DNA of 64,000 nt from Betaproteobacteria bacterium (GTDB taxonomy: Bacteria; Pseudomonadota; Gammaproteobacteria; Burkholderiales; Casimicrobiaceae). A model generated the notes under the pieces. The model searched no databases. It worked only from the letters and a program-made list of their open reading frames with translations, and was not told the origin of the DNA. Shown one piece after another: positions 3,569 through 64,000 of this stretch. Each line of letters begins with the position of its first letter. The first letter of the stretch is position 1. The stretch covers positions 1 to 64,000 of the forward strand of contig JAAFJA010000007.1 in the NCBI GenBank assembly GCA_013298765.1, given 5' to 3'. The translations under genes and the position numbers were made by a program.

Positions 3569-4075
3569 CTACTCTGCGGCCTTGAGTTCCTCGATAATCC
3601 TTGCGCTACGCGCCCTAATGCGCTCCATCATTGGTGGCATTAGCGATTGCATCATCGGGGCTGATTGCGATATCACCTGCGGTGCTTTCTGCGCAAACGC
3701 AATGCCCGCTGGCGAACGATAAAAGTCGCGAATTCCGCGCAATTCATCTAACGTATAAACAGTCGCATAGGCGTCCAGCATCGAAGCTTTTACCTTGCCA
3801 AGAAAATCCGCGCCCATCATGTCATCAGTAAATTCCGTCATATGGCGCTGCAAAATTTCCTGCTGCTTGGAGTTGAGCTTTTGACCACTGACTTGTTTTT
3901 GCAAGTTTTGTAGCGTGGGGGTCATGAGTTGTCGCACGCTTTGGGCCAGTGACTCGCTCGCGGTCAGATCCAAAACTTCTTGTGCAAGTTGTTTCGCTTC
4001 TGCCGAGGGCTGCGCATATGAAGGGGCGCTTGTGGCGAGAAGAAACGATGCGAGGAGTAGAGCGCGTAGTTTCAT
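3569..4075 (-). CDS. DUF2059-family periplasmic protein
   Basis: 168-aa ORF with a signal peptide (MKLRALLLASFLLATSAPSYA). It is helical and Q/L-rich, with the LDELRGIRDFYRSPAG motif typical of DUF2059. Confidence 0.7.
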   Translation of the reverse strand: MKLRALLLASFLLATSAPSYAQPSAEAKQLAQEVLDLTASESLAQSVRQLMTPTLQNLQKQVSGQKLNSKQQEILQRHMTEFTDDMMGADFLGKVKASMLDAYATVYTLDELRGIRDFYRSPAGIAFAQKAPQVISQSAPMMQSLMPPMMERIRARSARIIEELKAAE

Positions 4076-4136
4076 GTATTTCCTTTAATCGATTCGCCAA
4101 ACTGAAACAAGTGAGAGCGTAGCGGATTTCAACCGA

Positions 4137-5765
4137 TCAAATGGCAATAGCGTTGAAACTCAACCCAAACCGCGCCAAATACTTGCGCAACCGATCCGCG
4201 TCGTTCACTTCGCTTCGCTCTTCGCGCGAGACGTTGTAGAGCTTGCGACCCGCATCCGAGAGCGTGCGGCTTTGTTTGCACACGCGAATTACCGCTTCGA
4301 GTTGCAGGCGATCGAAGAGATCGAGTTTTGCGAGTGCGGCTTCGTCGACATAGCGTTCGAGCTCGACGCTTTGCGCGTTGCTCGTCGATGCGTCTTTCGC
4401 CCAAAGCCATTTGAGCCGCTCGATTTCCGCATCGACCACGGCCTCGGTGATGCGCCCGCCGTCGGCGAGTGTGGCCATGCGAGTCACACTTGCGGATAGA
4501 TCACGAAAATTGCCTCTCCACGCGCCATTTACACCGGACGCGAAGCTCATATAACGCTTTTTCGCTTCTACATTGAATCGAGCCTGTTGCCCGATATCTT
4601 TTGGGCTAAGTGACAATAGGTAATCTACGTTCGGCTCAATGTCTTCGGGTCGCTCGGCAAGGCCGGGCAAGGTGTAACTCCAGAGATTGATCCGCGCGAA
4701 CAAATCCTCTCGAAACTCGCCGCGCGCGACCGCATCGCGCAGATCGAGATTGGTGCCTGCGATCAACTGGAAATCGCTCGCAACTTCTTTGTCTGCACCG
4801 ACTGGATAGAAGCGTTTGTCTTCAATCGCTTTGAGCAGCATCGCTTGTTCATCAAGCCCGAGCGTGCCGATCTCATCGAGAAAGAGCACGCCTTTGTCAG
4901 CGCTGCGAAGCAAGCCCGCGCGATCGGCCATCGCGCCCGTGAACGCGCCCTTTTTGTGACCGAACAAGGTGGACGCGGCGCCGTCGCCCATGAGCGTTGC
5001 GCAATTCACTTCAACGAATTCGCCAGTGACGTTGTGTCGCTCTTTCTTCAATTCGTAAATGCGCTTCGCGAGGAAACTTTTCCCCGCGCCGGTGGGGCCG
5101 GTCAGCAACACTGGCGCACTTGATCGCAGCGCCACGTGTTCAATCTCATCGATCAAGGCGTTGAAGCGTTTGTTCTTCGTTGCGATGCCGCTTTTCAAGT
5201 AGCGCTTCGCATCGTCCGTCGCGATCGCAAAGCGTTTCGCAATCGCGTCATAGCGCGAAAGATCAAGATCGATCAGCGCATAGCTGCCCGGATCGCCTTC
5301 GCGCTGCGGGCGTGGCGGCGCGGTTTGCAGGAGCACACCCGGTAGCACGCGCGCCTCTGCAAGCAAGAACAAACAAATCTGCGCGACGTGCGTGCCCGTC
5401 GTGATGTGAATCCAATAATCCGATTGCTCCGGATCAAGCTTCTGCGCATGCGCCCAATCAAAGAGCGCGCCATACATCTCACCGAAATCCCAAGGATCGC
5501 GCACGGGCAGCGCATGCAAGGTGACGCGCGTATCCGGGCTCACGAGCGCGATGTCTGCCACCACTTGCTCCGCAATCCGCTCATGCCCCGGCGAATGCAA
5601 CAGCTCAATCGCATCAATCGCGACATCTTCGTGCTGCACGATAGAAATGGTCGGCCGCCACTTTTGCCAACGACCACGACCGCCGCCTGCATCAAGCTGC
5701 GAGCCTAGGAAGCCGATGACGGTGGTGGGTTTGGTGGTTGGTTGTGACACTCTTTGCTGCTCCAT
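4137..5765 (-). CDS. rtcR: sigma54-dependent transcriptional activator RtcR (CARF-like N-terminal domain + AAA+ domain + C-terminal HTH)
   Basis: Collinear with E. coli RtcR throughout (WRPT, HITTGTHVAQIC, IDLDLSRY, GPTGAGKSF, GAFTGA, FLDEIG, ATWRGNFRELSASVTRMAT, NDADRLRKYLARFGL). The start was chosen at MEQQRV (5765). An alternative upstream ATG lies at 5798. Confidence 0.9.
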   Translation of the reverse strand: MEQQRVSQPTTKPTTVIGFLGSQLDAGGGRGRWQKWRPTISIVQHEDVAIDAIELLHSPGHERIAEQVVADIALVSPDTRVTLHALPVRDPWDFGEMYGALFDWAHAQKLDPEQSDYWIHITTGTHVAQICLFLLAEARVLPGVLLQTAPPRPQREGDPGSYALIDLDLSRYDAIAKRFAIATDDAKRYLKSGIATKNKRFNALIDEIEHVALRSSAPVLLTGPTGAGKSFLAKRIYELKKERHNVTGEFVEVNCATLMGDGAASTLFGHKKGAFTGAMADRAGLLRSADKGVLFLDEIGTLGLDEQAMLLKAIEDKRFYPVGADKEVASDFQLIAGTNLDLRDAVARGEFREDLFARINLWSYTLPGLAERPEDIEPNVDYLLSLSPKDIGQQARFNVEAKKRYMSFASGVNGAWRGNFRDLSASVTRMATLADGGRITEAVVDAEIERLKWLWAKDASTSNAQSVELERYVDEAALAKLDLFDRLQLEAVIRVCKQSRTLSDAGRKLYNVSREERSEVNDADRLRKYLARFGLSFNAIAI

Positions 5766-5815
5766 GCTCCCTCTAGTGCTGGGTTCCTTGCACCACACCT
5801 CAATCTGTCATCCCC

Positions 5816-5914
5816 GCGGAGGCGGGGACCCAGACCGAGACGGTCGAGAAACTACGATCATTTGATCAACAGCAATCTGCCCGGTCTGGGTTCCCGCCTT
5901 CGCGGGAATGACGA
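5816..5914. repeat. inverted-repeat pair of GC-rich palindromic units (tgtcatccccgcggaggcggggacccagaccg / cggtctgggttcccgccttcgcgggaatgacg)
   Basis: Arms of 32 nt at 5816-5847 and 5882-5914 are reverse complements with 3-4 mismatches. Each arm is itself palindromic (CCCGCG..GCGGG). The pair lies in the rtcR / rtc-operon divergent intergenic region. Confidence 0.75.
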
Positions 5915-6091: not shown

Positions 6092-6655
6092 GTCAAACAG
6101 AAAACATGATGCGCTTACAGGTTCTAGGGGTTTGCTCCCCACCGGTGCGCGATGCCTCGAATGGTTCGAGTTGCGTGTTGCGTATGCCGCCGCATGTGGA
6201 CTGCTTGATATGAAGTTCTCTTGGTGACAGCGGCAACGCTGTTGGGTTCGATTCCCTTGAATTTCTCCTTTTGGATAGCTCAATCGGCAGAGCAATCGAC
6301 CACGAATCGATATGTAGCGGGTTCGAATCCCGTTCCAAAACCTGGCCTGAAACGCCATGATGAAACCCGAGCCGCAAGGCTCACCGCCGAATGCAGATCG
6401 GCAACGCGGACAACGAAGCATCGAAACACGAAAGCGAATCGATGCTGCGGTGGAAGCGAAGGCGATTTGTCAGCCCGCGCGCTCTGCGATATGCGAGAGG
6501 CGAGGACGAACGGCACGGCAGCGTTGTTAGTAACGCGTTCGATGCAGTTTGATCGAACGCGAAGCAAGCGACAACACCGTTGCTCAACGTTCAACGCAAG
6601 CGAATCCCGCGAGCGGACTGTAACGGCAACACTCACGAATAAAGAAAGAACAACA
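6092..6655 (+). ncRNA. structured 5' leader / candidate ncRNA region between the sigma54 promoter and the first CDS
   Basis: About 560 nt with no convincing CDS. The overlapping ORF translation is low-complexity and R/T-rich. The region contains the tRNA-like element and several perfect hairpins (GCATCGA..TCGATGC at 6419-6446; CGTTCGAT..ATCGAACG at 6536-6559). Confidence 0.4.
6269..6341 (+). tRNA. tRNA-like cloverleaf, Arg(ACG)-type but atypical; a possible pseudo-tRNA or Y-RNA-like tRNA mimic in the rtc operon leader
   Basis: Manual fold. The acceptor stem TTTTGGA/TCCAAAA has 7 bp. Positions 8-9 are U8 and A9. The D-arm is GCTC-AATCGGCA-GAGC and includes GG. The anticodon stem is ATCGA/TCGAT with loop CCACGAA, so the anticodon is ACG but position 33 is C rather than U. 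The variable loop is ATGTA. The T-arm is GCGGG-TTCGAAT-CCCGT. The discriminator is C and no CCA is encoded. The AT-rich acceptor stem is anomalous for this GC-rich genome. Confidence 0.5.
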
Positions 6656-7795
6656 ATGATGAATCTAAACAAAATCAATGTGCGCAAAACCGAACGTGCA
6701 GTACTTTTGCGCAATGGCGATTTCGAGCGCGTGCTCGCGCCGGGTCAATACTGGTTTCCTACGCTCTTCGACAAGATTGTCGTGGAGCGAAAAGAGGTAG
6801 CACAGCCACTCTACATCGGCGCTGCTGCTGACTACCTGCTCGCAACGCCTACCGATTCGGCAAACGAGCACTTCGTGCGTGTTGAATTGAACGATACGCA
6901 AGCTGGCTTGTTGTACGAAAACGATTCGCTCGTCGAACTTTTGCCGCCTGCGACGCGTCGCTTGTATTGGAAGACTTCGGCAAACGTGCGCGTTGAAACC
7001 GTTGAGCTTTCGGGTGAAGGCGAGCTTGCGAAAGACTTGGTTGCAAAGATCACGCATTCGCAATTGAAGCGTCGCGCGGTTGCTGGTTTGCAAGCGGTGT
7101 TGCAAGTGCAAGTGCCGGAATACAACATCGGCTTGCTTGTGATCGACGGGAAACTTGTTCGCATGCTGGAAGCGGGTTCGTATGCGTTTTGGCGATTTAA
7201 CCGTAGCGTTACGGTGGAGTTCGTCGATTTGCGTGTGCAAGCGCTTGAAGTCACCGGTCAAGAAATCTTGACGCGAGACAAAGTGGCGCTACGACTCAAC
7301 CTGGGCGCAACGTGGCGTTATGCGGACGTGTTGAAAGCGTTCGCGATGACTGCGAAACCGTTGGATAACCTCTATCGCGAATTGCAGTTTGCATTGCGCG
7401 CCGCAGTGGGCACGCAATCGCTCGACGAGTTGCTGGAAAACAAAACGGCACTCAATGAGAAGGTTAAAGTCGCAGTGCGCGAGCGCATGGCGAGCGCAGG
7501 TATCGCGCTTGAGGCAGTGGGTGTGAAAGACATCATCCTGCCTGGCGAGATGAAAGCGATCCTCGCGCAAGTCGTAGAAGCGGAAAAAGTCGCGCAAGCC
7601 AACTTGATCCGTCGCCGCGAAGAAACCGCTGCATCGCGCTCGCTCTTGAACACAGCGAAAGTGATGGAAGACAACCCAGTGGCGCTACGCTTGAAAGAGC
7701 TAGAAACCCTGGAACGCGTCGCGGAACGCATCGACAAAATCTCCGTGTTTGGAGGTTTGGACGGTGTGTTGAACGCGTTGGCGAAAGTGAAGTAG
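6656..7795 (+). CDS. SPFH/band-7 (stomatin/flotillin-like) domain protein
   Basis: About 379 aa starting at the ATGATG after aaagaaagaacaaca. The SPFH domain is indicated by the pattern LYENDSL..RRLYW... and long coiled-coil/EA-rich helices (ILAQVVEAEKVAQANLIRRREE). No N-terminal TM segment is evident. Confidence 0.75.
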   Translation: MMNLNKINVRKTERAVLLRNGDFERVLAPGQYWFPTLFDKIVVERKEVAQPLYIGAAADYLLATPTDSANEHFVRVELNDTQAGLLYENDSLVELLPPATRRLYWKTSANVRVETVELSGEGELAKDLVAKITHSQLKRRAVAGLQAVLQVQVPEYNIGLLVIDGKLVRMLEAGSYAFWRFNRSVTVEFVDLRVQALEVTGQEILTRDKVALRLNLGATWRYADVLKAFAMTAKPLDNLYRELQFALRAAVGTQSLDELLENKTALNEKVKVAVRERMASAGIALEAVGVKDIILPGEMKAILAQVVEAEKVAQANLIRRREETAASRSLLNTAKVMEDNPVALRLKELETLERVAERIDKISVFGGLDGVLNALAKVK

Positions 7796-7802
7796 CCTCG
7801 TC

Positions 7803-7930
7803 AACGAGTGATTCCCTCCCCTTCAAGGGGAGGGTCAGGGTGGGGATAGTTTTCTCTGCCTCCTATCGACCGAAAACCATTCCCCTCCTAGCCTCCCCGT
7901 TGAAGGGTGAGGAACCCGCAAAGCATCGGA
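7803..7930. repeat. REP-like GC-rich palindromic element (two units)
   Basis: It contains ccctccccttcaaggggagggtcagggtgggg and cctccccgttgaagggtgagg, which belong to the same family as 1255-1340 and 40288-40332. Confidence 0.7.
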
Positions 7931-7937
7931 TCAGCGC

Positions 7938-8474
7938 ATGAACGACTACGACTACATCATCAACAGCTTACAAAACGAGTCGATCACCGAATGGGAAGAG
8001 TTGGCGTTGATTGTTGACGATTTCCCCGGTGGGGTCGATTGGTGGTTGGGGCGACGTTGGATCATCAATGCAATTGATTTGTCCCCGTTGAGCGCAATCG
8101 AATGGATGCTCACGAAAGGGATAAACCTTCGATTCCGTGACGGCGAAGGCTATACGCCGTTACATTCAGCGGTAGAGCGTAGATTCGATGATCGCGTTCA
8201 AGTGATAAGTGCATTAGTGGGAGCGGGTGCAAATGTCGACGAGATTGGTCGTGAAACGACTACCCCTCTCTTATTCGCGCTCGAAATGAAGCGAAACGAG
8301 TGCGCACTTGCACTTTTGCAACTCGGCGCAAACGTCCACGTTCAAACACTGATCGATTGGTATGAATCCCCGCTCGAGTACGCGCAGCGCACGAAACATG
8401 AGCTGTTGCCTCAACTTGAAAATGCCGCTGCGCGAAAAACTCGCGAATTCGGGGCCAAAGTGAAAACAGCATGA
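7938..8474 (+). CDS. ankyrin-repeat protein
   Basis: 178 aa with three ANK-like units (GYTPLHSAVERRFDDRVQVISALVGAGANVDE; TTPLLFALEMKRNECALALLQLGANVHV). GC is about 50%, below the window background. Its stop overlaps the rtcB start (ATGA). Confidence 0.8.
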   Translation: MNDYDYIINSLQNESITEWEELALIVDDFPGGVDWWLGRRWIINAIDLSPLSAIEWMLTKGINLRFRDGEGYTPLHSAVERRFDDRVQVISALVGAGANVDEIGRETTTPLLFALEMKRNECALALLQLGANVHVQTLIDWYESPLEYAQRTKHELLPQLENAAARKTREFGAKVKTA

Positions 8475-9688
8475 AAAACTACAACGAAATCCAAACCGAA
8501 AACGTCCCGATCAAAATGTGGACGAAGGGCGTGCCTGTTGAGGACGACGCTCAGAAGCAATTGCTCAACGCTTCGAAGTTGCCGATTGTGTTTAAGCACA
8601 TCGCTGCGATGCCGGACGTGCATTTGGGGATTGGTGCGACTGTGGGCTCGGTGATTCCTACGCTGCGGGCGATCATTCCGGCGGCCGTCGGCGTGGACAT
8701 CGGTTGCGGGATGATTGCTTGCAAGACGACGTTAACCGCGAGCGACTTGCCGGATAACTTGTTGCCGCTTCGTAGCGCGATTGAGCGCTCGGTGCCGCAC
8801 GGGCGCGTGGCGATGCGCGGGAAGCGAGACACCGGCGCGTGGGACAGCCCGCCCGAGGAAGCGGATGCTGCGTGGGCGAAACTTGCATCGGGTTTTGATG
8901 AGATCACCGAGGTTGAGCCGCGCTTGAAAAACACGAACAACCGAAAGCATTTGGGAACGCTTGGAACGGGTAACCATTTCATCGAAATTTGTCTCGATGA
9001 GAAGCAGGCGGTTTGGATCATGCTGCATTCGGGTTCGCGCGGCGTGGGTAACGCGATCGGAACGCTCTACATTGAGCGCGCTCGCGAAGAAGCGATCAAG
9101 CACAACATGAATTTGCCTGACAAAGATTTGGCGTATTTCGAAGAAGGCTCGAAGTATTTCGGCGACTACGTGCGCGGCGTGAGCTGGGCGCAGCAATTCG
9201 CGAAACTAAATCGCGAAGTGATGATGCAGCGCGTGATTGCGGCGATGAAAACCGTGATCGCGAAGCCGTTTGAGACGCATCTGGAAGCGGTGAACTGTCA
9301 TCACAACTATGTGCAACGCGAAACGCATTTCGGCGAAGCCGTGTTCGTGACGCGCAAGGGCGCGGTGAGCGCAAAGGCGGGTGAACTCGGCATCATCCCG
9401 GGTTCGATGGGCGCGAAGAGCTACATCGTGCGCGGAAAAGGCAATCCGGAAAGCTTCATGTCATGCAGCCACGGCGCAGGCCGCACGATGAGTCGCACGC
9501 AAGCGAAAAAGCGCTTCACGCTCGCCGATCACATCAAAGCGACCGAAGGCGTGGAATGCCGAAAAGACGAGGATGTGATCGACGAGATTCCGATGGCGTA
9601 CAAAGACATCGACGCGGTGATGGAAGCGCAGCGGGATTTGGTGGATGTGGTTTATACGTTGAAGCAGGTGGTTTGTGTGAAGGGGTGA
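8471..9688 (+). CDS. rtcB: RNA-splicing ligase RtcB (3'-phosphate/5'-OH RNA ligase)
   Basis: 405 aa. The N-terminus ...PIKMWTKGVPVEDDAQKQLLNASKLPIVFKHIAAMPDVHLGIGATVGSVIPT is near-identical to the E. coli RtcB N-terminus. The metal-ligand and catalytic His regions (GTGNHFIE, SCSHGAGR) are conserved. Confidence 0.95.
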   Translation: MKNYNEIQTENVPIKMWTKGVPVEDDAQKQLLNASKLPIVFKHIAAMPDVHLGIGATVGSVIPTLRAIIPAAVGVDIGCGMIACKTTLTASDLPDNLLPLRSAIERSVPHGRVAMRGKRDTGAWDSPPEEADAAWAKLASGFDEITEVEPRLKNTNNRKHLGTLGTGNHFIEICLDEKQAVWIMLHSGSRGVGNAIGTLYIERAREEAIKHNMNLPDKDLAYFEEGSKYFGDYVRGVSWAQQFAKLNREVMMQRVIAAMKTVIAKPFETHLEAVNCHHNYVQRETHFGEAVFVTRKGAVSAKAGELGIIPGSMGAKSYIVRGKGNPESFMSCSHGAGRTMSRTQAKKRFTLADHIKATEGVECRKDEDVIDEIPMAYKDIDAVMEAQRDLVDVVYTLKQVVCVKG

Positions 9689-10417: not shown

Positions 10418-10582
10418 AGCATCGGAATTTCGTTTCGGTCGTAGCTAGGATGAAGCGCAACGGAATCGAGGCATTTCATTCGCAACCCCTCGATTGCGCT
10501 TCGTTTCATCGAGGCTGCGAATCGTGGATCGCTTCGCGATGCGTTACGGGAACCCGGATGCGAGCATCCGGGCTACGTCCTT

Positions 10583-10693
10583 CGTTTTCGGTAGGGTGCG
10601 ATCCTATCGCACCTTGTGCGCATACGCGCGAAGCGCACTACTTCAATCCGCGTTGGTCGGTATCAAACTGGGTGCGATAGGATCGCACCCTAC
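10583..10693. mobile_element. MITE-like element of about 115 bp (copy 1) with terminal hairpin/inverted repeats TAGGGTGCGATCCTATCGCACC ... GGTGCGATAGGATCGCACCCTA
   Basis: Terminal 23-nt inverted repeats lie at 10583-10606 and 10669-10693. The internal core (cttcaatccgcgttggtcggtatcaaa) is about 80% identical to the reverse complement of the core of the second copy at 55157-55255. Confidence 0.65.
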
Positions 10694-11177: not shown

Positions 11178-11951
11178 ATGCGCATTCTCATCACCGGACT
11201 CAACGGCTCGTTAGCGCCGCATCTTGCGCGGGTTGCACGTGCGCACGCGCACGAGGTGATCGGTTGGGATCGCGGTGCGGTTTCTCCGGATGATGCAGCG
11301 GCGGGCGATACGTTCCTTCACAACACGCAACCCGATGCCATTGCGCATTTGGGCTTTGGGAGTGAGGATTGGGCCGCGCGGCTTGCGAGTTGGGCAGCGG
11401 CGAATGATCGAGCGTTTGTGTTCACGAGTACGGCAATGGTGTTCGATCATCTACCCGATGGCCCGCATCGAGTGAACGATGAGCGCACGGCGAAAGACGA
11501 TTACGGTCGCTACAAAATTCGTTGCGAAGACGCGATCCGCGCGGCGAATCCTGCTGCGTGCATCGCGCGGATTGGTTGGCAGATTGATGTTGACGACGAC
11601 GGCCACGCGCGGGGTAACAATATGCTTGCGGCGCTCGATCAACAGCAAGCCAGTGATGGACGGATTCGCGCGAGCACTGCGTGGCGGCCCGCGTGTTCGT
11701 TGATGAGCGATACGGCGTTGGCTTTGCTTCAGTTGATCGAGCAGCGCGGCGAAGGTGTCGTGCATCTCGATAGCAATGAAGACTCAGCGCTCAATTTTTA
11801 TGAGTTGGTTGCGTCACTCAAAGTGCGGTTCGCTAGAGCGTCGTGGATCATCGAGCCGCATGCGGAGTATGTTCACGATCAGCGGCTGATTGCTTCCGAG
11901 TGCAGCGCGGTGCGTATCGCGCCGCTTTCAGCACGGTTCGGTAGCCAATAA
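11178..11951 (+). CDS. NAD(P)-dependent sugar-nucleotide epimerase/reductase (short-chain dehydrogenase/reductase (SDR) family; RmlD-substrate-binding-like)
   Basis: 257 aa. It has an N-terminal Rossmann motif (MRILITGLNGSLAPHL) and the Y-x3-K pattern (DDYGRYKIRCE). Confidence 0.65.
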   Translation: MRILITGLNGSLAPHLARVARAHAHEVIGWDRGAVSPDDAAAGDTFLHNTQPDAIAHLGFGSEDWAARLASWAAANDRAFVFTSTAMVFDHLPDGPHRVNDERTAKDDYGRYKIRCEDAIRAANPAACIARIGWQIDVDDDGHARGNNMLAALDQQQASDGRIRASTAWRPACSLMSDTALALLQLIEQRGEGVVHLDSNEDSALNFYELVASLKVRFARASWIIEPHAEYVHDQRLIASECSAVRIAPLSARFGSQ

Positions 11952-12075
11952 TTGCAATGCAACTTAAATCGCTATAACCAGGCTTAAACAGGGCGAAAAT
12001 CAATAAATCAAGTTTATCAATGCTTAGGTTTTTAGACCGCTAGCCCCGCTAGAAAAAGGATTACGCTTGAAAAGC

Positions 12076-12579: not shown

Positions 12580-12635
12580 AGTTGTCTAAATCTTCGCGAT
12601 TGCATCAAGGAGGCAGGCGCGTGTTTCGCGCATGT

Positions 12636-13295
12636 TCATCGGTTTTCAGGGCACGCACCGCTCGCCACATTACTGCTGGGGATACGTACTTTGAATTCTT
12701 CGAGCTTCTGCATCACGCTTTGCGGCGGCTCACGCAGCACGATTGAAGCGCCAGCGACGGTTTGTTGCCGCTGCCGATACACGGCCGTTTTCACACCTTT
12801 GTTGCGCACTTCTTCAAATCGGCTGTCTGCGGCGTTACGACTGCGAAACACGCCAAGCGAAATCGACCATTGCCACTGCCCGGCTTCGCTTACGATTGCG
12901 GCGTCGCTCACATTGAGTCGACCTAGCTCTGCAAGCGCGCGCTCGGCTGCCGCTTTGTTGGCTTTGGGCGGAATGTAGACCCAGTGCTCAGCGGTGATCT
13001 CCACTTTACGCGTCGACACGGTTTTTCCGAGTGCGAGCGGCTCAAGAAGGGCGCGCGCTTGGGTGAGCTCGGCATCATTAAAGGGCCCCCATTCCGCGCA
13101 TGCGAGTGTGAGCTGCGCCGCTTTTGCGGGGCCGAGCTTGGCGTACTGTTGCGCGCTTAGTACGCGCACGCTCTCCGGATTCATCGGCTTTAAGCGTTCG
13201 TTGTCGGGCGAGGCATTGGCGGCGAATTCGCGGTAATAGCCATAGCCAAACACCGCGAGGTTGGCGAAGAGCAGCACGAAGATCCAGCGTTTCAT
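12636..13295 (-). CDS. SPOR-domain protein (septal peptidoglycan-binding)
   Basis: 219 aa with an N-terminal signal/TM segment and a C-terminal SPOR-like region (QWQWSISLGVFRSRNAADSRFEEVRNKGVKTAVY). It sits at the conserved position downstream of coaX. Confidence 0.75.
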   Translation of the reverse strand: MKRWIFVLLFANLAVFGYGYYREFAANASPDNERLKPMNPESVRVLSAQQYAKLGPAKAAQLTLACAEWGPFNDAELTQARALLEPLALGKTVSTRKVEITAEHWVYIPPKANKAAAERALAELGRLNVSDAAIVSEAGQWQWSISLGVFRSRNAADSRFEEVRNKGVKTAVYRQRQQTVAGASIVLREPPQSVMQKLEEFKVRIPSSNVASGACPENR

Positions 13296-22190: not shown

Positions 22191-22214
22191 ACAACGTTAC
22201 GCCCTGTGATCATT

Positions 22215-22361
22215 GCCACAGATGCACACAGATTCAAACCAGTAACAAACGGATCACGCGCGCTGCACTCACGTCGAACTTTCGATGCGGGACTGCTGAT
22301 GCGAGTGACATGGCTTGTACCCATCTGTTTAATCTGTGTGCATCTGTGTAAATCTGTGGCA
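22215..22361. repeat. element of about 150 bp bounded by 21-nt inverted repeats (tgccacagatgcacacagatt / aatctgtgtgcatctgtg-ta-aatctgtggca); MITE-like or large regulatory palindrome
   Basis: The arms at 22215-22235 and 22331-22361 are exact reverse complements, and the right arm has a partial internal duplication. The element sits in the intergenic region upstream of the gamma-carbonic-anhydrase gene. Confidence 0.6.
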
Positions 22362-22375
22362 AATAATTTTCAAAC

Positions 22376-40287: not shown

Positions 40288-40332
40288 AACCCCAACCCAC
40301 CCTAACCCTCCCCTTGAAGGGGAGGCATCAAT
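40288..40332. repeat. REP-like GC-rich element (ccctccccttgaaggggagg)
   Basis: Its core is the same as the 7812-7830 element. It lies upstream of ppc. Confidence 0.65.
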
Positions 40333-43410: not shown

Positions 43411-45537
43411 ATGAAACGCGTCTTTTATCGTCTGCACATCATGCGGACGCTCATGACCCTTGCCGTAAGCGCGGGTCTCGGATTGATATCAAGTATTGTC
43501 GGCGCTCAAACCGTCATTAACGCAACGCTCGGGAGCGCGCCGCCTACGGGCTCCAACTACACCGCGAGCAGTGGGACACAAACGGGTCGTCTGCTGCGCA
43601 ACGGAACAGCCTCCACCTGCGCAGCGCCGAAGACGAATCCAGGTTTGAACGACACCGACCCGGGTCGGGCGTATCACGCCTACACGTTCACGAACACAGC
43701 AAGTAGCGCGGTCTGCTTTACGGTGACTTTGACGCAGCCGGGTAACACGCTGTTTGTATTGGCATACGGTAACGCGGGTCTCGTTACTTCGGCGCCCGAT
43801 ACGAACTACCTTGCAGACGCCGGATCCTCTACCGCAACCGCAACCTTCAGTTTCAATGTGCCAGCGGGCGAGAGCTTTACGCTGGCGGTGCACGAAGTCG
43901 CTGCGGGAGGAGGGGGAGGGACGGCTTACACACTCTCCGTGAACTTGCCATCCGCCGATCTCGCGATTACTAAAACCGATGGCGTTACCACCGCCGTGCC
44001 GGGCGGCTCGGTCACCTATACAGTCACAGCTAGCAACGCTGGACCCGGAAGTGCCAACGGTGCGACGGTCGCTGATACCTTTCCGGCTGCGCTCACCTGT
44101 ACCTGGACTTGCGCAGGCGCGGGCGGTGGAACTTGCACAGCATCGGGCTCCGGAAACATCAACGACACCGTAAATCTCCCGACTGGCGGCTCTGTAAGCT
44201 ACACCGCATCTTGTGCCATCTCTGCCTCAGCAACGGGAACGCTCAGCAACACCGCCACGGTGTCGCCGCCCGCTGGCGTTGTTGATCCGAACCCTGCGAA
44301 TAACAGCGCGACGGACACCGACACGCTAACGCCAAGCGCCGACCTCGCAGTCACGAAGACCGATGGCGTTACAACTGTGACAGCCGGCACCTCTACGACG
44401 TACACGATTACGGCCAGCAACGCCGGGCCTAGCAATGCTCTCGGAGCCACTGTGGCCGATACGTTTCCGGCGTCGCTCACCTGTACGTGGACTTGCGTAG
44501 GTGTTGGCGGCGGCTCGTGCACTGCATCGGGCTCCGGAAACATCAACAACAACGTGAATTTACCCGCCGGGGGTTCGGTAACCTACACCGCAACCTGCGG
44601 CATCGCTGCAACGGCAACTGGATCGTTAAGCAATACCGCCACCGTGACGGCGCCCGGTAGCGTCGTTGATCCGAACCCTGCGAATAACAGCGCAACGGAT
44701 ACCGACACGATCATCGCGGCGACCTACACCATTGGCGGCACAATTTCCGGACTCAGTGCGAGCGGTTTGGTGCTCGCGGCAGGCACGTCGCCCAATCAAA
44801 CGGCGTCTCCCGCTTCTGGTGCGAGCAGCTTCGCATTCCCGACTGCGGCATCCGGAAGCTATGCGGTCACTGTGCAAACGCAGCCAAGCGGATTGAACTG
44901 CAGTGTTGCAAACGGTAGCGGCACACTTACGGCCAACGTAACCAACGTAGCGGTGACTTGTTCGGCGATCACATTCACGGTGACCGGCATCGCGAATCCT
45001 TCGGCAGGCGGAACGGTGAATTGCGTTTCTCCGGTGAACTTTGGTGGCAGCAGCTCCTGCAATGCGAGCGCGAACGCCGGGTACGTGTTTTCGAGTTTCA
45101 GCGGCGGGTGCGTGGGAAGCACTTGCGCAATTAGCAATATTCAGGCGAATCAATCAGTCACCGCAAATTTCTTGCTAACTCAAACGATCACGTTTGGCAC
45201 TCAAACGCCGCGCGCACTGATCGCCGGGGGTTCGTTCCTGCTGAACCCTGTTGCAACTGCGAGCAGCGCTCTGCCGCTCGCCTACTCATCGCTTACGCCC
45301 TCTGTGTGTACCGTTTCTGGAACGACCGTGACCATGTTTACAGCTGGCACCTGCACCGTCAGGGCCGATCAAGCGGGTAATGCGCAGTTCGCGTCCGCTT
45401 TCGCTACGCAATCCTTCGTCATTGGCGCAGCCGCGGCCGCAACCCAGGTGCCTTCACTGCCGGTTGGGTGGGTCATCGCCCTAGCGCTATTGCTCATCGC
45501 GGCGGGTGTGATCGTTCAACGTGCGAAACGAACGTAG
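43411..45537 (+). CDS. DUF11-repeat surface protein with an IPTL-CTERM-type C-terminal sorting signal
   Basis: 708 aa with a signal peptide. There are three repeats of about 125 aa (LAITKTDGVT...TASNAGP...DPNPANNSATDTDT), which are DUF11/CARDB-like. The C-terminus VPSLPVGWVIALALLLIAAGVIVQRAKRT matches the IPTL-CTERM pattern: the motif, a TM helix, then a basic tail. Confidence 0.8.
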   Translation: MKRVFYRLHIMRTLMTLAVSAGLGLISSIVGAQTVINATLGSAPPTGSNYTASSGTQTGRLLRNGTASTCAAPKTNPGLNDTDPGRAYHAYTFTNTASSAVCFTVTLTQPGNTLFVLAYGNAGLVTSAPDTNYLADAGSSTATATFSFNVPAGESFTLAVHEVAAGGGGGTAYTLSVNLPSADLAITKTDGVTTAVPGGSVTYTVTASNAGPGSANGATVADTFPAALTCTWTCAGAGGGTCTASGSGNINDTVNLPTGGSVSYTASCAISASATGTLSNTATVSPPAGVVDPNPANNSATDTDTLTPSADLAVTKTDGVTTVTAGTSTTYTITASNAGPSNALGATVADTFPASLTCTWTCVGVGGGSCTASGSGNINNNVNLPAGGSVTYTATCGIAATATGSLSNTATVTAPGSVVDPNPANNSATDTDTIIAATYTIGGTISGLSASGLVLAAGTSPNQTASPASGASSFAFPTAASGSYAVTVQTQPSGLNCSVANGSGTLTANVTNVAVTCSAITFTVTGIANPSAGGTVNCVSPVNFGGSSSCNASANAGYVFSSFSGGCVGSTCAISNIQANQSVTANFLLTQTITFGTQTPRALIAGGSFLLNPVATASSALPLAYSSLTPSVCTVSGTTVTMFTAGTCTVRADQAGNAQFASAFATQSFVIGAAAAATQVPSLPVGWVIALALLLIAAGVIVQRAKRT
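43957..44710 (+). repeat. tandem direct DNA repeats of about 380 bp, two full copies, encoding the DUF11 domains
   Basis: The protein repeats are about 80% identical. The DNA copies are 43957-44340 and 44341-44710. Confidence 0.7.
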
Positions 45538-52070: not shown

Positions 52071-52830
52071 CGTGAGCTTTCAAATCATTACTGATCCGTG
52101 GTTTTATGTGTTCGCGATTCCCGCGATATTGATCACAGGCATCTCGAAAGCGGGCTTCGGCTCGGGCTCGGGCGGAATCGCCGTACCGATGATGAGCCAA
52201 GTGGTTGCCCCCAGCGCGGCTGCTGGCATCACGTTGCCGATATTGATCGTGATGGATATTCTGGGTATCCGCGCCTATCGAGGTAAGTGGAGTGTGGCTG
52301 CACTTAAGCCCATGATCGCGCCCGCCGTTCTTGGCATCGTGATTGGTGGGCTCATGTTTGGCGTGCTCTCCGTGAAGGCGACCAAAGCGCTCTTGGGCGC
52401 AATCGCTGTCTCCTTCGCGCTCTATCAGTTCCTGCCGGTGCTGCGAGATTTGAAATCGTGGCTGCCCGCTCCTATGCGGCCCTGGATTTGGTGCACGCTA
52501 TCGGGCTTTACCTCTACGCTCGCGCACGCGGGCGGGCCACCCTGCACAATCTATTTGTGGCCGAAAAATCTTGATCGTGTCACCTTCGTAGCGACCACGG
52601 TCGTGTTTTTCACCATCGTGAATCTGGTGAAACTCGTGCCCTACGCGATCCTCGGTCAGCTCAACTTCGCAAATCTTGCCACGGCGTTAGTGCTGATGCC
52701 GCTCGCGCCGCTGGGCGTCTGGATCGGTGTGCGTATCAATCGTTGGCTGAGCGAAGCTGCGTTCAAAAATACCATGCTCGCGCTCACGTTTGTCTTCGGA
52801 TGCAGACTGCTATTTGAGGGATTGCGATGA
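52071..52830 (+). CDS. sulfite-exporter TauE/SafE (DUF81) family membrane protein
   Basis: A GTG start is inferred at VSFQIITDPWFY. It has 7-8 TM helices and glycine-rich motifs (GISKAGFGSGSGGIAVP). Confidence 0.7.
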
Positions 52831-55157
52831 AAGATTCGCTTAGCTCGCTCACACTTGTCGCCGTGGATTGCGCGTACCCCGCGCTTGCTGCGAAGGCGCT
52901 CCAGCGATCTGCTGCGCTCTTGCCAAGTGCACGCGTATTGCTCTTGTCAGATTGCGGCGAAGTGTTTCCGGACGTTGAGACCGTTGCCATTGCGCCAATT
53001 AAATCGCGCTCGGCGTACTCGCGCTTCATGCTTAAAGAGCTCGCGGATTACATCGATACCGATTTCGCGCTGGTTGTGCAGTGGGACGGTTTTGTGATCC
53101 ACGACAACGCGTTTGCCAAAGAGTTTTGGAACTACGATTACATCGGCGCAAAGTGGCCCCACAAGGAAGGCGATTTCCGCGTCGGCAACGGCGGCTTCTC
53201 ACTGCGCTCGAAGCGCTTGCTAGAGGCGCTTCGCGATCACGCTATTGAGTTTCTGGAAGACGAGAACGAAGACGAAAGTATCTGTATTCGTTATCGGGAT
53301 CAACTGGAAACCCAGTACGGAATCGTTTTTGCTGATGAACGTGTTGCGGATCGATTTGCGTTCGATGTTTCACGCCCGATTGGCCGCACGCTTGGCTTTC
53401 ATGGCGTGTTTAATTTCTGGCAGGCGCTTTCAGCCGATGAGTTAGTGGAGTTCGCGCGCACTGCTCCGGAGGCAATTGCGGAAGGGCTCGGGTTCGGTTC
53501 GCTCACTAAAAATCTAGTCGATCTGAAGCGAAATGAGGTGGCGAGCGAATTCGTTACTCGTCGGCTTGCTTCGGTGCCTGGTGATCCGGCCGCGCTCGCG
53601 CTTCGTGCTCGTCTCGCCGATGCGCTTCGTGTTAATGCCTCATCTGCGTCTACACAGCCCGCTCCAAGCGATGTGGGGGTCAAGCCGCCGGCTTCACGAA
53701 ACGATCCGTGCCCGTGTGGCAGCGGGAAGCGCTACAAGGAATGTCATGGCGCGATTGCAGCGGCTACAACCGCTCAGAGCGTGAAAATTGATGAAGAAAG
53801 CGTGATTGCCGAGGCGCTCCGGCTTCATGAGCAAGGCCAGATTCAAGCAGCGGTTGAACGGTACAGCCGCGTGCTCCAGCAATCGCCTGAAAATCCGACG
53901 GCCCTGCACTTTATCGGGCTTGCGCAGTACCAGGCAGGTCAGCCCAGTGATGCGATGGAAGCGATGTGGCGCTCATTGCTTCTCGCACCAAACGAACCCG
54001 AGTTCCTTAGTAACTTCAGCGCTGCGGCGTGGAGCGCGGGTCGCTACGATGAAGGCAAGTGGGCTGCCGAGCGCGCAATCGAGTTGCAAGCTGATCATCC
54101 TGGCGCCCTCAATAACTTGGGCTTTAACTTGCGCGCGCTCAATCGGATTGACGAATCCATCACAGTCTTTGATCGTGCGCTTGAGCTACACCCGCAGTTC
54201 GATTACGCGCGCTGGAACCGCATGTTTTCGTTGCTCGCAAAGGGTAACTACTCGCAAGGATTTGCTGATAACGAACTGCGCTTGCAGTTTCCACAAACGC
54301 AGCCCACCGGGAGAATTCCCGCAAACACGTCGCTGTGGCGTGGCGAGGCTGCAACAGGCAAGTCGATCGTGATTCTGTGCGAGCAAGGGCTGGGCGACAC
54401 GTTCATGTTTGCGCGGTTTGTTCCGCTCGTCATTGAGCGTGGGTTGCGCGTAACACTCGTGGTTCAGCGCTCTCAAGTGGCGCTGATGCAGCAGTCGTTT
54501 CCGCATGCGCGCGTGCTCTCCGTGGGTGAACACGAGGCGCTCAGCTTTGATTTTTGGACGCCGTTGTGGTCGCTCACCTCCGCGCTCAACATTACGCTTG
54601 AGAATCTCCCCACGCCTGAGCGTTTTTTGCAAACTAACGTGGCTGATGTCGCTCGTTGGGAAGCGCGTCTGTCGCGAGTCTCCGCGACAAATGCTGGAAG
54701 GCCGCTTCGAATCGGTTTGGTTTGGCAAGGTCAAATGGCTGGTGCCGATAGCCAAATGGCGGAGCGTTCAATCGCGCCGCGTCTGGTGAAGCGTTTCGTG
54801 GAATCGCACCCTGAACATGTGTGGGTTTCTCTTCAGCATGGCGCTGCACCGCTCGGCGCGAGTAACCTGAACGATTGGACGAGTGAGACAGTTGAATTCA
54901 CGCAGATGGCGGCGTTAATCGACGCGCTCGACATCGTGCTCACGATTGACACGGGTGCCGCACATCTCGCCGCTGCACTCGGCGCGAAAACCTGGGTCAT
55001 GCTGCGCCATGCAGGCGATTGGCGCTACGGCACCGAAGCCGCGAATGGCGAGCTCTGCCCGTGGTCACCGACCATGCGGCTATTCAGACAGGACGAATCG
55101 CGGCGTTGGGAGCCTGTGTTCGCACATATCGCGGACGCGCTTCGTGAAGCGGGGTAG
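52827..55157 (+). CDS. multidomain protein: N-terminal unknown domain + SEC-C zinc motif + TPR repeats + C-terminal glycosyltransferase family 9 (heptosyltransferase-like) domain
   Basis: 776 aa. The SEC-C motif is DPCPCGSGKRYKECHG, with TPR-like helical repeats after it. The C-terminal region (GLGDTFMFARFVPLV...TGAAHLAAALG) is GT9-like. Confidence 0.7.
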   Translation: MKDSLSSLTLVAVDCAYPALAAKALQRSAALLPSARVLLLSDCGEVFPDVETVAIAPIKSRSAYSRFMLKELADYIDTDFALVVQWDGFVIHDNAFAKEFWNYDYIGAKWPHKEGDFRVGNGGFSLRSKRLLEALRDHAIEFLEDENEDESICIRYRDQLETQYGIVFADERVADRFAFDVSRPIGRTLGFHGVFNFWQALSADELVEFARTAPEAIAEGLGFGSLTKNLVDLKRNEVASEFVTRRLASVPGDPAALALRARLADALRVNASSASTQPAPSDVGVKPPASRNDPCPCGSGKRYKECHGAIAAATTAQSVKIDEESVIAEALRLHEQGQIQAAVERYSRVLQQSPENPTALHFIGLAQYQAGQPSDAMEAMWRSLLLAPNEPEFLSNFSAAAWSAGRYDEGKWAAERAIELQADHPGALNNLGFNLRALNRIDESITVFDRALELHPQFDYARWNRMFSLLAKGNYSQGFADNELRLQFPQTQPTGRIPANTSLWRGEAATGKSIVILCEQGLGDTFMFARFVPLVIERGLRVTLVVQRSQVALMQQSFPHARVLSVGEHEALSFDFWTPLWSLTSALNITLENLPTPERFLQTNVADVARWEARLSRVSATNAGRPLRIGLVWQGQMAGADSQMAERSIAPRLVKRFVESHPEHVWVSLQHGAAPLGASNLNDWTSETVEFTQMAALIDALDIVLTIDTGAAHLAAALGAKTWVMLRHAGDWRYGTEAANGELCPWSPTMRLFRQDESRRWEPVFAHIADALREAG

Positions 55158-55255
55158 GGTGCGATCCTATCGCACCCAAATTGATACTAGCCAACGTAGA
55201 TTGAGGAAATGCGGTCGCGCGGATCGTCACGAGGTGCGATGGGATCGCACCCTAC
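55157..55255. mobile_element. MITE-like element (copy 2, inverted relative to copy 1)
   Basis: It has the termini TAGGGTGCGATCCTATCGCACCC ... GGTGCGATGGGATCGCACCCTAC. The internal core is the reverse complement of the 10607-10668 core, at about 80% identity. Confidence 0.65.
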
Positions 55256-62220: not shown

Positions 62221-64000
62221 GCCTTCGCAAACTCTGTCCGATGCGCAATCCATCGCGCTAGAAACGCTGCGCGATGGAATGCCGGGTCGTTATCGAGTTG
62301 ATTTGCGGCATTGCGCGCGGCTTCGACGAGGTCGATGTCTTCTTCGATGTTCGCGTAGCGAAGCCCCGGTACGCCGGACTGCCTTGGGCCAAGCAATTCG
62401 CCAGGGCCCCGAATGCGCAGATCTTCTCTGGCGATCACGAAGCCATCGGTGGTTTCGTAGATGACTTTGAGGCGTTGCTTGGCGGTGTCGGAGAGTTTGT
62501 CGGCGAAAAGCAGAATGCAAGTGGACGCCGCACTGCCGCGCCCCACGCGTCCGCGTAGCTGATGCAGTTGCGCAAGACCGAAGCGTTCCGCGTGTTCGAT
62601 CACCATCCAACTTGCGTTCGGTACATCGACGCCGACTTCGATGACGGTGGTCGATACGAGCACTTGTACCTTGTTTTCGATGAAGGCTTGCATGATTTCC
62701 GCCTTCTCTTCGGCTTTCATGCGACCGTGCAAGAGCGCGACCTTGACGTTCGGCATCGCTGTGACGAGCTCTGTGTAGAGCGCGGTTGCGTTTTGCAGCT
62801 CGATTTCCATTTTGTCGCTCTCTTCAATGAGCGGACAAACCCAATACGCTTGCGCGTCGGCTTGCGCGGCAGCGTAAATGCGTTCGGCAACCTCGCCGCG
62901 GCGTTTTTCGGAGACGAGTTTGGTGACGATCAGTTGTCGGCCGCTTGGGATTTCGTCGATGACTGAAACATCGAGGTCAGCGTAGTAGCTCATCGCGAGC
63001 GAGCGTGGAATGGGGGTGGCGCTCAGCATTAATGTGTGGGGGGCGAGTTGCTCCCTCCCGTTCAACAGGAGGGCGGGGGTGGGGATGGGGTTGTCTTCTG
63101 GCGCGTTAAACCGGACGCCAACTCCCTCACCCGCCCTTCGGGCACCCTCTCCCAGAGGGAGAGGGACGGTTTTCGAGCGCAATCGCAACCGCTGCTCCAC
63201 GCCAAATCGGTGCTGTTCATCTACGACCACCAAGCCCAATCTTGCAAACGACACTTTCTTCTGAAATAGCGCGTGCGTACCGATGGCGATCTGTGCTTCG
63301 CCTCGCTTGCACTTCTCCTGTGCGGCCTTGAGCTCCGCCGCGGTGAGCGAGCCGGCAAGCCAGGTGAGCTGCACGGGCAAATCTTTGAGCCAGTGCGAGA
63401 GCTTGCGAAAGTGCTGCTCGGCCAGCAGCTCTGTCGGGGCCATGAACGCGACCTGGTAGCCCGCCTCGACACAGGCGAGCGCCGCCAGCGCGGCGACGAT
63501 GGTTTTTCCGCTGCCTACATCGCCTTGAAGTAGGCGTGTCATCGGCACCTCGCGGGCGAGATCGCGCAGCACGTCGGCGACTGCGCGTTCCTGAGCGGCC
63601 GTGAGCGTGAACGGCAAACGCTGCATCATCAATGGTGTGATGAGCTGCGTGGGGCTGATCGATGGCGCGCGCTCGGCGGCGCGAAGCGTTTTCGCATCTT
63701 TGAGCGCGAGCTGTTGTGCGAGTAGCTCATCAAACTTGATACGCCGCCATGCGGGATGCGTTCGCGTTTCAAGCGCGGCAATCGCGTTCACATCGGTGGG
63801 CGCATGGAGCGCGGCAAGCGTCTCCCCCCACTGCAGCAGTTTCATTGAATCTCGCGCCGACGCTGGCAACAGTTCCGACTGCCACTCACGAACCTTGAGC
63901 GCTTTGCTCGCGAGCGTGCGCAATGCTGCCTGAGGAATTCCCGCAGTGGACGGGTAGACAGCCGTAAGCGCTTTCGAACCACTTAATTGGGGCTCAATCT
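62217..64000 (-). CDS. recG: ATP-dependent DNA helicase RecG, partial (N-terminus lies beyond the window end)
   Basis: Helicase motifs are conserved: GDVGSGKT (I), VVDEQHRFGV (II), SATPIPR (III) and the C-terminal QLRGRVGRG (VI). It carries an extra segment of about 35 aa between motifs II and III that derives from a REP element. Confidence 0.9.
   Translation of the reverse strand, partial: IEPQLSGSKALTAVYPSTAGIPQAALRTLASKALKVREWQSELLPASARDSMKLLQWGETLAALHAPTDVNAIAALETRTHPAWRRIKFDELLAQQLALKDAKTLRAAERAPSISPTQLITPLMMQRLPFTLTAAQERAVADVLRDLAREVPMTRLLQGDVGSGKTIVAALAALACVEAGYQVAFMAPTELLAEQHFRKLSHWLKDLPVQLTWLAGSLTAAELKAAQEKCKRGEAQIAIGTHALFQKKVSFARLGLVVVDEQHRFGVEQRLRLRSKTVPLPLGEGARRAGEGVGVRFNAPEDNPIPTPALLLNGREQLAPHTLMLSATPIPRSLAMSYYADLDVSVIDEIPSGRQLIVTKLVSEKRRGEVAERIYAAAQADAQAYWVCPLIEESDKMEIELQNATALYTELVTAMPNVKVALLHGRMKAEEKAEIMQAFIENKVQVLVSTTVIEVGVDVPNASWMVIEHAERFGLAQLHQLRGRVGRGSAASTCILLFADKLSDTAKQRLKVIYETTDGFVIAREDLRIRGPGELLGPRQSGVPGLRYANIEEDIDLVEAARNAANQLDNDPAFHRAAFLARWIAHRTEFAKA
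63045..63175. repeat. REP-like GC-rich palindromic element embedded in-frame within recG
   Basis: It reads ctccctcccgttcaacaggagggcgggggtggggatgggg...ccctctcccagagggagagggac. On the minus strand it translates to ...TVPLPLGEGARRAGEGVGVRFNAPEDNPIPTPALLLNGREQ... inside RecG. Confidence 0.7.

Follow-up and report, generated by a model that had tools for sequence, protein, structure and literature searches.

An earlier note on the DNA analysed here, a 64-kb stretch of a betaproteobacterial contig (hereafter the window), described a novel, MITE-like element of about 115 bp in two inverted copies at positions 10583–10693 and 55157–55255. This raises the question of what kind of element the repeat represents, which enzyme could have spread it, and what it does at its present sites.

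Overall Architecture of the Two Copies

The window contains two real copies in inverted orientation, but their bounds differ from those first given. Copy 1 spans positions 10591–10693 on the plus strand (103 bp) and copy 2 spans positions 55154–55255 on the minus strand (102 bp), inverted with respect to copy 1. A 23-nt inverted repeat, GTAGGGTGCGATCCYATCGCACC, delimits each element. The window contains four occurrences of the 23-mer GTAGGGTGCGATCCTATCGCACC at no more than one mismatch, one per element end and always pointing inward, compared with 0.00 expected from dinucleotide-preserving shuffles. The complementarity of the arms within a copy is 100% and 96%, respectively, and between the copies the arms are 98% and the 57-nt cores 70% identical. 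The flanks of the two copies are unrelated and the similarity ends exactly at GTAG/CTAC. A profile of 26 family members revealed no third copy of this element, termed type A, in the 64-kb window.

Hairpin-forming termini, as first described, are present at all four ends: each terminus is itself a palindrome in which GTAG is followed by GGTGCGAT-CCY-ATCGCACC, giving an 8-bp stem with a 3-nt loop. By this architecture, GTAG-tagged repetitive extragenic palindromes (REPs) are defined. The remaining features quoted in the earlier note are likewise present in the sequence. In copy 1, the left REP (10591–10613, plus strand) consists of GTAG and a GGTGCGAT-CCT-ATCGCACC hairpin, the stem pairs of which covary across 26 copies. 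The core contains a central conserved mini-hairpin, GCGCGAAGCGC (10626–10636, plus strand), and, beside the right REP, the block GGTATCAA(A/T)(C/T)TG (10659–10670, plus strand), which is nearly invariant in the family alignment. The right REP (10671–10693) carries GTAG on the minus strand. Copy 2 is built in the same way from a REP adjoining a TPR gene (55154–55176, plus strand) and a REP adjoining ychF (55233–55255, minus strand), which has the loop CCC and one mismatch to the other three REPs. Thus, each copy forms a head-to-head doublet of two inverted REPs, 57 nt apart, with GTAG outward.

Units consisting of GTAG and a perfect hairpin occur five times in the window, compared with 0.8 in shuffles, and four of them are the termini of the two elements. 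The fifth, GTAGCCCGGATGCTCGCATCCGGG (10553–10576, minus strand), represents a second family, situated immediately upstream of copy 1. It is the intact REP of a type-B GTAG-REP element (10451–10576, no strand assigned) whose partner arm has decayed, and type B and copy 1 together form a BIME-like REP cluster. A tandem of types B and A with a different spacer was also observed in the non-syntenic locus L029, and B REPs lie 3' of type-A elements in L046 and L082.

The two elements are, with high probability, inverted doublets of the GTAG-REP superfamily, that is non-autonomous REPIN-type elements of the class linked to REP-associated tyrosine transposases (RAYTs). REPINs have been defined as REP doublets forming hairpins (Bertels & Rainey 2011, PMC3116915), and GTAG-REP head-to-head (HH) dimers as two REP units with GTAG outward, 20–100 bp apart (Di Nocera et al. 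2013, PMC3733652). The proposal of a novel kind of element therefore gives way to membership in a known class of bacterial repeats.

Folding and Covariation of the REP Hairpins

As single-stranded DNA, copy 1 has a predicted folding energy of −36.5 kcal/mol (z = −7.8), and for either strand a 23-bp inter-arm stem is predicted (−26 to −37 kcal/mol, z between −6.5 and −8.7). Covariation was analysed in an alignment, A2, of 26 full-length copies from the window and four Casimicrobium-like Betaproteobacteria MAGs. At both ends of A2, GTAG is kept in at least 90% of the sequences. As every locus entered the set by way of one exact REP match, this figure and the other REP and arm conservation values are partly inflated. 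The core, at about 68% identity, includes the conserved blocks ACCTYGTG, GCGCGAAGCGC, TTCTTCAATCC, and GGTATCAATTTG.

The local REP hairpins in combination with the small central hairpin leave 96.3% of the A2 cells paired, and within these helices double compensatory changes are found at 7 pairs, compared with 1.6 in shuffles (26 copies). Across the REP hairpins, 96–99% of cells are paired in the 26 copies, and in the central mini-hairpin two of the four pairs show double compensatory changes. The alternative long hairpin, formed from arm to arm, fits slightly worse, with 94.4% of cells paired and no pairing at the middle loop position in 12 of 26 copies. Moreover, in several copies, among them L079, L061, and L082b, one arm is internally compensated and no longer matches the other arm, and the sub-family GTAGGG(T/C)GCAATCTCATTGC(A/G)CC displays different bases with the stem kept. 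Since the local hairpins fit better, the arms compensate internally, and the sub-family keeps its stem, selection acts on the single REP hairpin. Within the core, the GCGAAGC motif deserves mention, as d(GCGAAGC) forms a DNA mini-hairpin of unusual stability. A stable mini-hairpin of this kind would suit a single-stranded DNA intermediate, which provides a lead.

A strong predicted fold, compensatory changes in the stems, and a conserved core are also what would be seen if the elements were not mobile DNA but structured non-coding RNA genes or cis-regulatory RNAs. However, both strands fold equally well, and the arms correspond to the generic GTAG REP common to RAYT loci. Neither element contains a sigma-70-like promoter or an Rfam match, the best hit being a chance-level match to folP (E = 2.7, 14 bits versus a gathering score of 99). 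In addition, the core is inverted between unchanged arms at one orthologous site (see below), a change incompatible with an oriented RNA gene. Taken together, an RNA gene or riboregulator appears very unlikely.

Distribution of the Family

A scan of 185,579 GTDB species-representative genomes with the exact REP pattern GTAGGGTGCGATNNNATCGCACC retrieved 87 loci. Among these, the full element of about 103 bp including the core is, beyond the window, restricted to four related MAGs from Betaproteobacteria: Casimicrobium sp. JBOFBL01 (12 loci) and the "WN_Betaproteobacteria" bins bin28 JAAFJO01 (9 loci), bin60 JAAFIS01 (4 loci), and bin41 JAAFJI01 (3 loci). The window and the four MAGs, five genomes in all, contain at least 26 full-length type-A doublets with a constant spacing of about 80 nt. 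Nearly all REPs stand in doublets, and only a few copies are clearly truncated (L021, L037, and L070). The further copies that a pattern search had been expected to reveal thus exist in other genomes. The notion of a sizeable family holds in so far as a family exists (87 exact-REP loci, 26 aligned elements), but with two copies in the 64-kb window and about 3–12 exact-REP loci per related MAG, its dispersal is small by REP standards.

The window comes from a relative of these genomes. Locus L005 of bin28 is syntenic with the window at 84–90% nucleotide identity, and the best matches of the RtcB protein of the window are a JGI metagenome sequence (96%), the JAAFIS01 MAG (94%), and a Casimicrobium sp. 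MAG (93%); identity to MAGs labelled 'Betaproteobacteria bacterium' is 86–87%.

The bare REP reaches further. It is multi-copy in MAGs labelled Campylobacterales (8 loci) and Thermoanaerobaculia (10 loci in one MAG) as well as in many Planctomycetota and in Gracilibacteria/Patescibacteria MAGs, is found twice in Thermohalobaculum, and has single occurrences in a Thiomargarita MAG, a Pseudomonas isolate, a cyanobacterium, and others. About one chance match to the 20-base REP pattern is expected in the 596 Gb, and the flanks of the bare-REP matches have the base composition of their hosts. Therefore, most of the matches across phyla are real, although single contigs among them may be mis-binned. 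This phylum breadth of the bare REP is the only mildly surprising aspect.

A scan of viral contigs for the REP gave no match, and a metagenome scan for the lineage-specific right end yielded a single match, L088, which is the orthologue of the ychF site and did not supply a RAYT. Two candidate features were rejected in the course of the analysis. Loci with two matches on the same strand are not CRISPR arrays, their spacings ranging from 111 to 453 nt and the repeats not being regularly arrayed. The motif CACGA found 3' of the right REP is not an extended end but the inner flank of further adjacent REPs, reflecting REP clustering.

Target Sites and Probable Link to RAYT Transposases

The earlier note had pointed to target-site duplications and to a cognate transposase of the IS630/Tc1 or IS5 family as features to look for. 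Target-site duplications were not found; in 23 copies the longest flanking direct repeat measures 0–1 nt. The dinucleotide CT just outside GTAG is weakly enriched (11 of 46 versus 6.2 expected, P ~0.04) and was not used as evidence. In about 260 kb of related loci, no gene, including any transposase, recurs beside the copies.

These results bear directly on the possibility that the elements are classical MITEs, that is internally deleted derivatives of a DDE insertion sequence (IS630/Tc1, IS5 or similar) that transpose via their TIRs by a cut-and-paste mechanism. The elements are small, are dispersed in many copies, and end in perfect 23-nt terminal inverted repeats, all of which is in line with this proposal. 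The missing duplications in 23 copies and the lack of a transposase or recurring gene beside the copies are not in line with it, and the supposed TIR is a GTAG-tagged palindrome, the signature of a REP. Moreover, the transposase genes that were found flanked by the same sequence are RAYTs. With neither target-site duplications in 23 copies nor a parent insertion sequence in the loci searched, the elements do not conform to the definition of a DDE-type MITE, and such an origin has a nearly negligible probability. The term MITE-like remains apt only for a small, non-coding, non-autonomous, TIR-bounded repeat family; the ends are those of GTAG REPs. Likewise, an IS630/Tc1 or IS5 (DDE) parentage is not supported, given the absence of duplications, the GTAG-tagged palindromic ends, and adjoining transposases of the RAYT-type HUH class. 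A cognate IS630/Tc1 or IS5 transposase was not found in the loci searched, and it is RAYT genes in other phyla that are flanked by the same REP.

The most informative of these genes lies in L049, a locus of a Pirellulales MAG, where a gene of 190 amino acids is situated between two copies of the same REP (5194–5216, plus strand, and 5823–5845, minus strand) with GTAG outward. The gene product matches Pfam Y1_Tnp, aligns with E. coli TnpA-REP (PDB 4ER8) over 166 residues including the HUH motif (E = 1.1e-33), and scores 181 bits, at a cutoff of 80, against the NCBIfam equivalog NF047646 "REP-associated tyrosine transposase". Three of its homologues (P0005, P0074, and P0050) are also bracketed, on their contigs, by GTAGGGTG-type REPs. 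Among Planctomycetota RAYT loci, the same REP is present at L049 and L090, and related REPs at L089 and L092. RAYT-directed searches of the scan loci found only RAYT/Y1 genes as transposases adjoining the REP. In E. coli TnpA-REP, GTAG and hairpin are both required for binding and for cleavage of single-stranded DNA (PMC3479197), and a RAYT gene, as a rule present in single copy, is typically accompanied on its flanks by REPINs that it presumably disperses (Bertels et al. 2017, PMC5581495).

Two further observations concern the relation between REPs and Y1 genes. In L063 (68–440), from a Thermohalobaculum MAG, the RAYT gene is truncated after about 55 residues and the same REP is located at and after the break, suggesting disruption of the gene by REPs of its own family. 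In L041 (250–537), L047 (1590–1892), and L072 (188–439), all from Patescibacteria/Gracilibacteria MAGs, a Y1/HUH-like ORF contains the same REP in frame, immediately behind the HUH motif (...MPNHLHLIIIIKNKHVGCDCIAP...), and the REP is succeeded by short tandem repeats and by another, dissimilar inverted REP.

Within the window and the related betaproteobacterial loci (about 300 kb), no RAYT was detected by tblastn with the L049 RAYT, nor did a RAYT HMM built from 100 sequences match their six-frame translations. A metagenome scan for the REP followed at 40–70 nt by TTYTTYAC, encoding the RAYT 'FFT' motif, gave no match. A protein search with the L049 RAYT picked out no betaproteobacterial RAYT among the best 120 of 7,524 matches, of which the few with an organism name are all Planctomycetota, and a search with the truncated Thermohalobaculum fragment returned three uninformative matches. 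As no RAYT was found in the betaproteobacterial sequence searched, the RAYT link for this lineage rests on other phyla. Here, the doublets were presumably moved by a cognate RAYT. Such a RAYT, a HUH/Y1 enzyme of the IS200/IS605 superfamily encoded elsewhere in the genome, would bind the REP hairpin and the 5' GTAG on single-stranded DNA and would then cleave and rejoin the DNA, thereby copying the doublet to new extragenic sites without target-site duplication. The occurrence of the same 23-nt REP beside RAYT genes in several phyla offers a handy system for studying how RAYT specificity and REP sequence travel together, a modest question for specialists.

History at Orthologous Sites

The identity of the cores is 0.68 within genomes and 0.67 between genomes, and no two copies are near-identical. 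As the divergence within genomes equals that between genomes, the population can be read as old, with no sign of a recent burst, and since identical or near-identical copies were not seen, there is no direct sign of current mobility.

Several occupied sites are orthologous. The ychF site is shared by the window, L005, and L088, and further occupied sites are shared by L020 and L029 and by L002 and L037, one arm having decayed in L037. Orthologous copies have retained 80–82% identity; between L020 and L029 the element is 82% identical, compared with about 54% in the left non-coding flank. The site of copy 1, between the RtcB and ABM genes, could be followed in four relatives. In L095 and L096, two-thirds of the element, on its right side, persist at the same junction; in L094 the left half survives, broken by a different repeat of about 200 bp; and L093, the closest relative, contains that repeat of about 200 bp and no type-A element.

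At the ychF site of L088 (944–1047), the 57-nt core has the opposite orientation to that of the window (55154–55255) and of L005 (1791–1893). The L088 core matches those of the window and L005 at 80% as reverse complement and at 46% on the same strand, the REP arms and loops being unchanged. An inversion of the segment flanked by the inverted arms would explain this most simply.

Intact, truncated, interrupted, core-inverted, and empty states are thus all represented at orthologous sites. In this betaproteobacterial lineage the population is old, vertically inherited, slowly decaying, and essentially static. Vertical inheritance and slow decay, with occasional loss and nested insertions, fit REPINs and do not fit a recently active MITE. 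The family provides a well-resolved case of long-lived, vertically inherited REP doublets beyond the usual Pseudomonas and enterobacterial models.

Gene Context and Likely Present Role

Both window copies occupy intergenic positions at convergent gene ends, in agreement with the initial description. Copy 1 is located 3' of RtcB (8471–9688) and an unannotated ORF of 241 amino acids, convergent with an ABM-domain gene. Copy 2 lies between ychF and a convergent gene of 776 amino acids; the neighbours had been given as a TPR/GT9 gene and ychF, of which TPR and ychF stand, whereas Pfam calls TPR/DUF5672 and not GT9. The distance of the window copies to neighbouring stop codons ranges from a few to about 170 bp.

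At copy 2 the element directly contributes to the reading frame: GTAG of the REP at 55154 supplies the TAG stop codon (55155–55157) of the TPR/DUF5672 ORF (52827–55157). Both orthologues lack this stop, so that the ORF extends into the element, owing to a change to GTCG in L005 (about 1885–1893) and to deletion of GTAGGGT in L088 (about 940–960). Within the family, the terminal TAG ends a long ORF at about 14 of 52 element ends. Beyond this stop-codon observation, the orientation of flanking genes at the 26 copies, derived from crude stop-to-stop ORFs, was too noisy to use. ORFs ending in or reading through a GTAG terminus call for caution in annotation. The same location bias and donation of stop codons have been described for GTAG REPs, many of which were argued to be transcribed as 3' RNA hairpins (PMC3733652).

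A Rho-independent terminator, that is a GC-rich hairpin with T-tract, is absent from either element. Given that neither a T-tract terminator nor a promoter or Rfam match is present in either copy, the likeliest present function would be that of 3'-end stem-loops at convergent genes. There, the stable stem-loops could act as 3'-end RNA structures or barriers and sometimes donate a TAG stop.

Another possibility is that the lineage has lost its RAYT and that the elements are relic REPs kept by the host, their hairpins and conserved core serving stabilisation of mRNA 3' ends, termination or protein binding (cf. IHF and BIME-1). The failure to find a RAYT in the betaproteobacterial sequence searched points in this direction, as do the ancient divergence of the copies without a recent burst, the excess of element over flank identity between L020 and L029, the covarying hairpins and conserved core blocks GCGCGAAGCGC and GGTATCAATTTG, and the position of both window copies at convergent 3' ends. 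However, the RAYT searches covered a small part of each genome, the element is lost or truncated in close relatives (L093, L037, and L095) with no obvious replacement, and terminator, promoter, and Rfam match are lacking. We therefore regard host-kept relics as possible but doubtful. They would have the same origin as the RAYT-dispersed doublets favoured here, and the two explanations differ in present-day mobility only.

A more far-reaching scenario, which we rate as unlikely, would combine the bare-REP distribution with the inverted core of L088. One RAYT-REP specificity (GTAG and GGTGCGAT nnn ATCGCACC) would have passed among at least six phyla and given rise there to lineage-specific doublets. 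The Casimicrobium-like doublet would since have been co-opted by its RAYT-less host, its asymmetric core (GCGAAGC, GGTATCAATTTG) flipping between fixed arms as a small invertible or protein-binding module at gene ends. If true, the carriage of a RAYT-REP pair across phyla would speak against the prevailing picture of near-purely vertical REPIN-RAYT inheritance.

Other Repeats in the Window

Besides types A and B, the window harbors further repeats. An element of about 109 bp with inverted ends of about 31 nt (GTCATCCCCGCGGAGGCGGGGACCCAGACCG ... CGGTCTGGGTTCCCGCCTTCGCGGGAATGAC) is located at 5804–5912, about 360 bp upstream of tRNA-Arg (6269–6342), and has copies in at least 11 related loci (L001, L003, L020, L023, L028, L051, L061, L069, L082, and L095/L096). 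The same tRNA gene is overlapped by an ORF of 524 amino acids (6221–7795), in which the Band_7/SPFH domain starts at residue 297; both the overlap and the late start of the domain place the true start of the gene well downstream.

A hairpin family of the form CCCTCACCC ... CCTCTCCC-nnn-GGGAGAGG is represented at 1289–1334, 63123–63166, 7815–7844, and 40296–40325. A two-armed version of the CCCTCACCC family, about 200 bp long, has inserted into type-A elements, immediately beyond their TTCTTC core block, in L014 (~3725–4100) and L094 (~11780–11960), and a repeat of this family occupies the copy-1 site in L093 (~12620–12800), where the type-A element is missing. An intergenic 27-nt inverted repeat, TTGCCACAGATGCACACAGATTCAAAC / GTGTGCATCTGTGTAAATCTGTGGCAA, with arms about 96 nt apart, is found at 22212–22362; no further copy was detected in the window or the other loci searched. 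Finally, two direct repeats of 300 nt at 43947–44630, 73% identical and 384 nt apart from start to start, probably represent a repeated domain inside a gene. For annotation, the type-A repeats and at least three other repeat families of the window are to be recorded as REP/REPIN-type elements and not as novel MITEs.

Comparison with Known Systems

Classical MITEs such as Correia, ERIC, and IS630-derived elements share with the type-A repeat the small size, the lack of coding capacity, the bounding inverted repeats, and the dispersal in intergenic DNA. In contrast to the type-A repeat, for which neither was found, they are characterized by target-site duplications and a parent DDE insertion sequence.

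The similarity to E. coli BIMEs, composed of REP y/z pairs, comprises the inverted REP pairs, the conserved internal linker, and GTAG at the foot of the hairpin. Sequences of REPs and linkers are different, however, and the REP stems of E. coli are imperfect and longer. BIME-1 carries an IHF site, whereas, as read by eye, the conserved block of the type-A element completes no IHF consensus WATCAANNNNTTR. On the enzyme side, the L049 RAYT resembles E. coli TnpA-REP (PDB 4ER8; PMC3479197) along the 166 aligned residues.

REPINs (PMC3116915, PMC5581495) correspond to the type-A element in the arrangement of two inverted REPs around a spacer, the total length of about 100 bp, and the possible long hairpin in single-stranded DNA. 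Moreover, the type-A element is, like REPINs, extragenic, apparently multi-copy, found far more often as doublets than as singlets, vertically inherited, and long-lived, with a REP matching one that flanks RAYT genes. Unlike the textbook REPIN, in which the spacer halves pair together, the type-A spacer is asymmetric with conserved blocks and a mini-hairpin of its own. Further differences are the low copy number, the lack of an abundant master sequence, and the lack of a RAYT in the searched loci of the lineage.

GTAG-REP HH dimers (PMC3733652) likewise have terminal GTAG pointing outward, with published stems of 6–9 bp, loops of 2–3 nt, and partners 20–100 bp apart. As in the published families, the type-A elements lie between convergent or unidirectional genes near 3' ends and donate TAG as stop codon, sub-families differ by complementary stem changes, and several REP families coexist in one genome. 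The stem GGTGCGAT/ATCGCACC is absent from the text supplements of PMC3733652, by which alone the 24 published families were compared.
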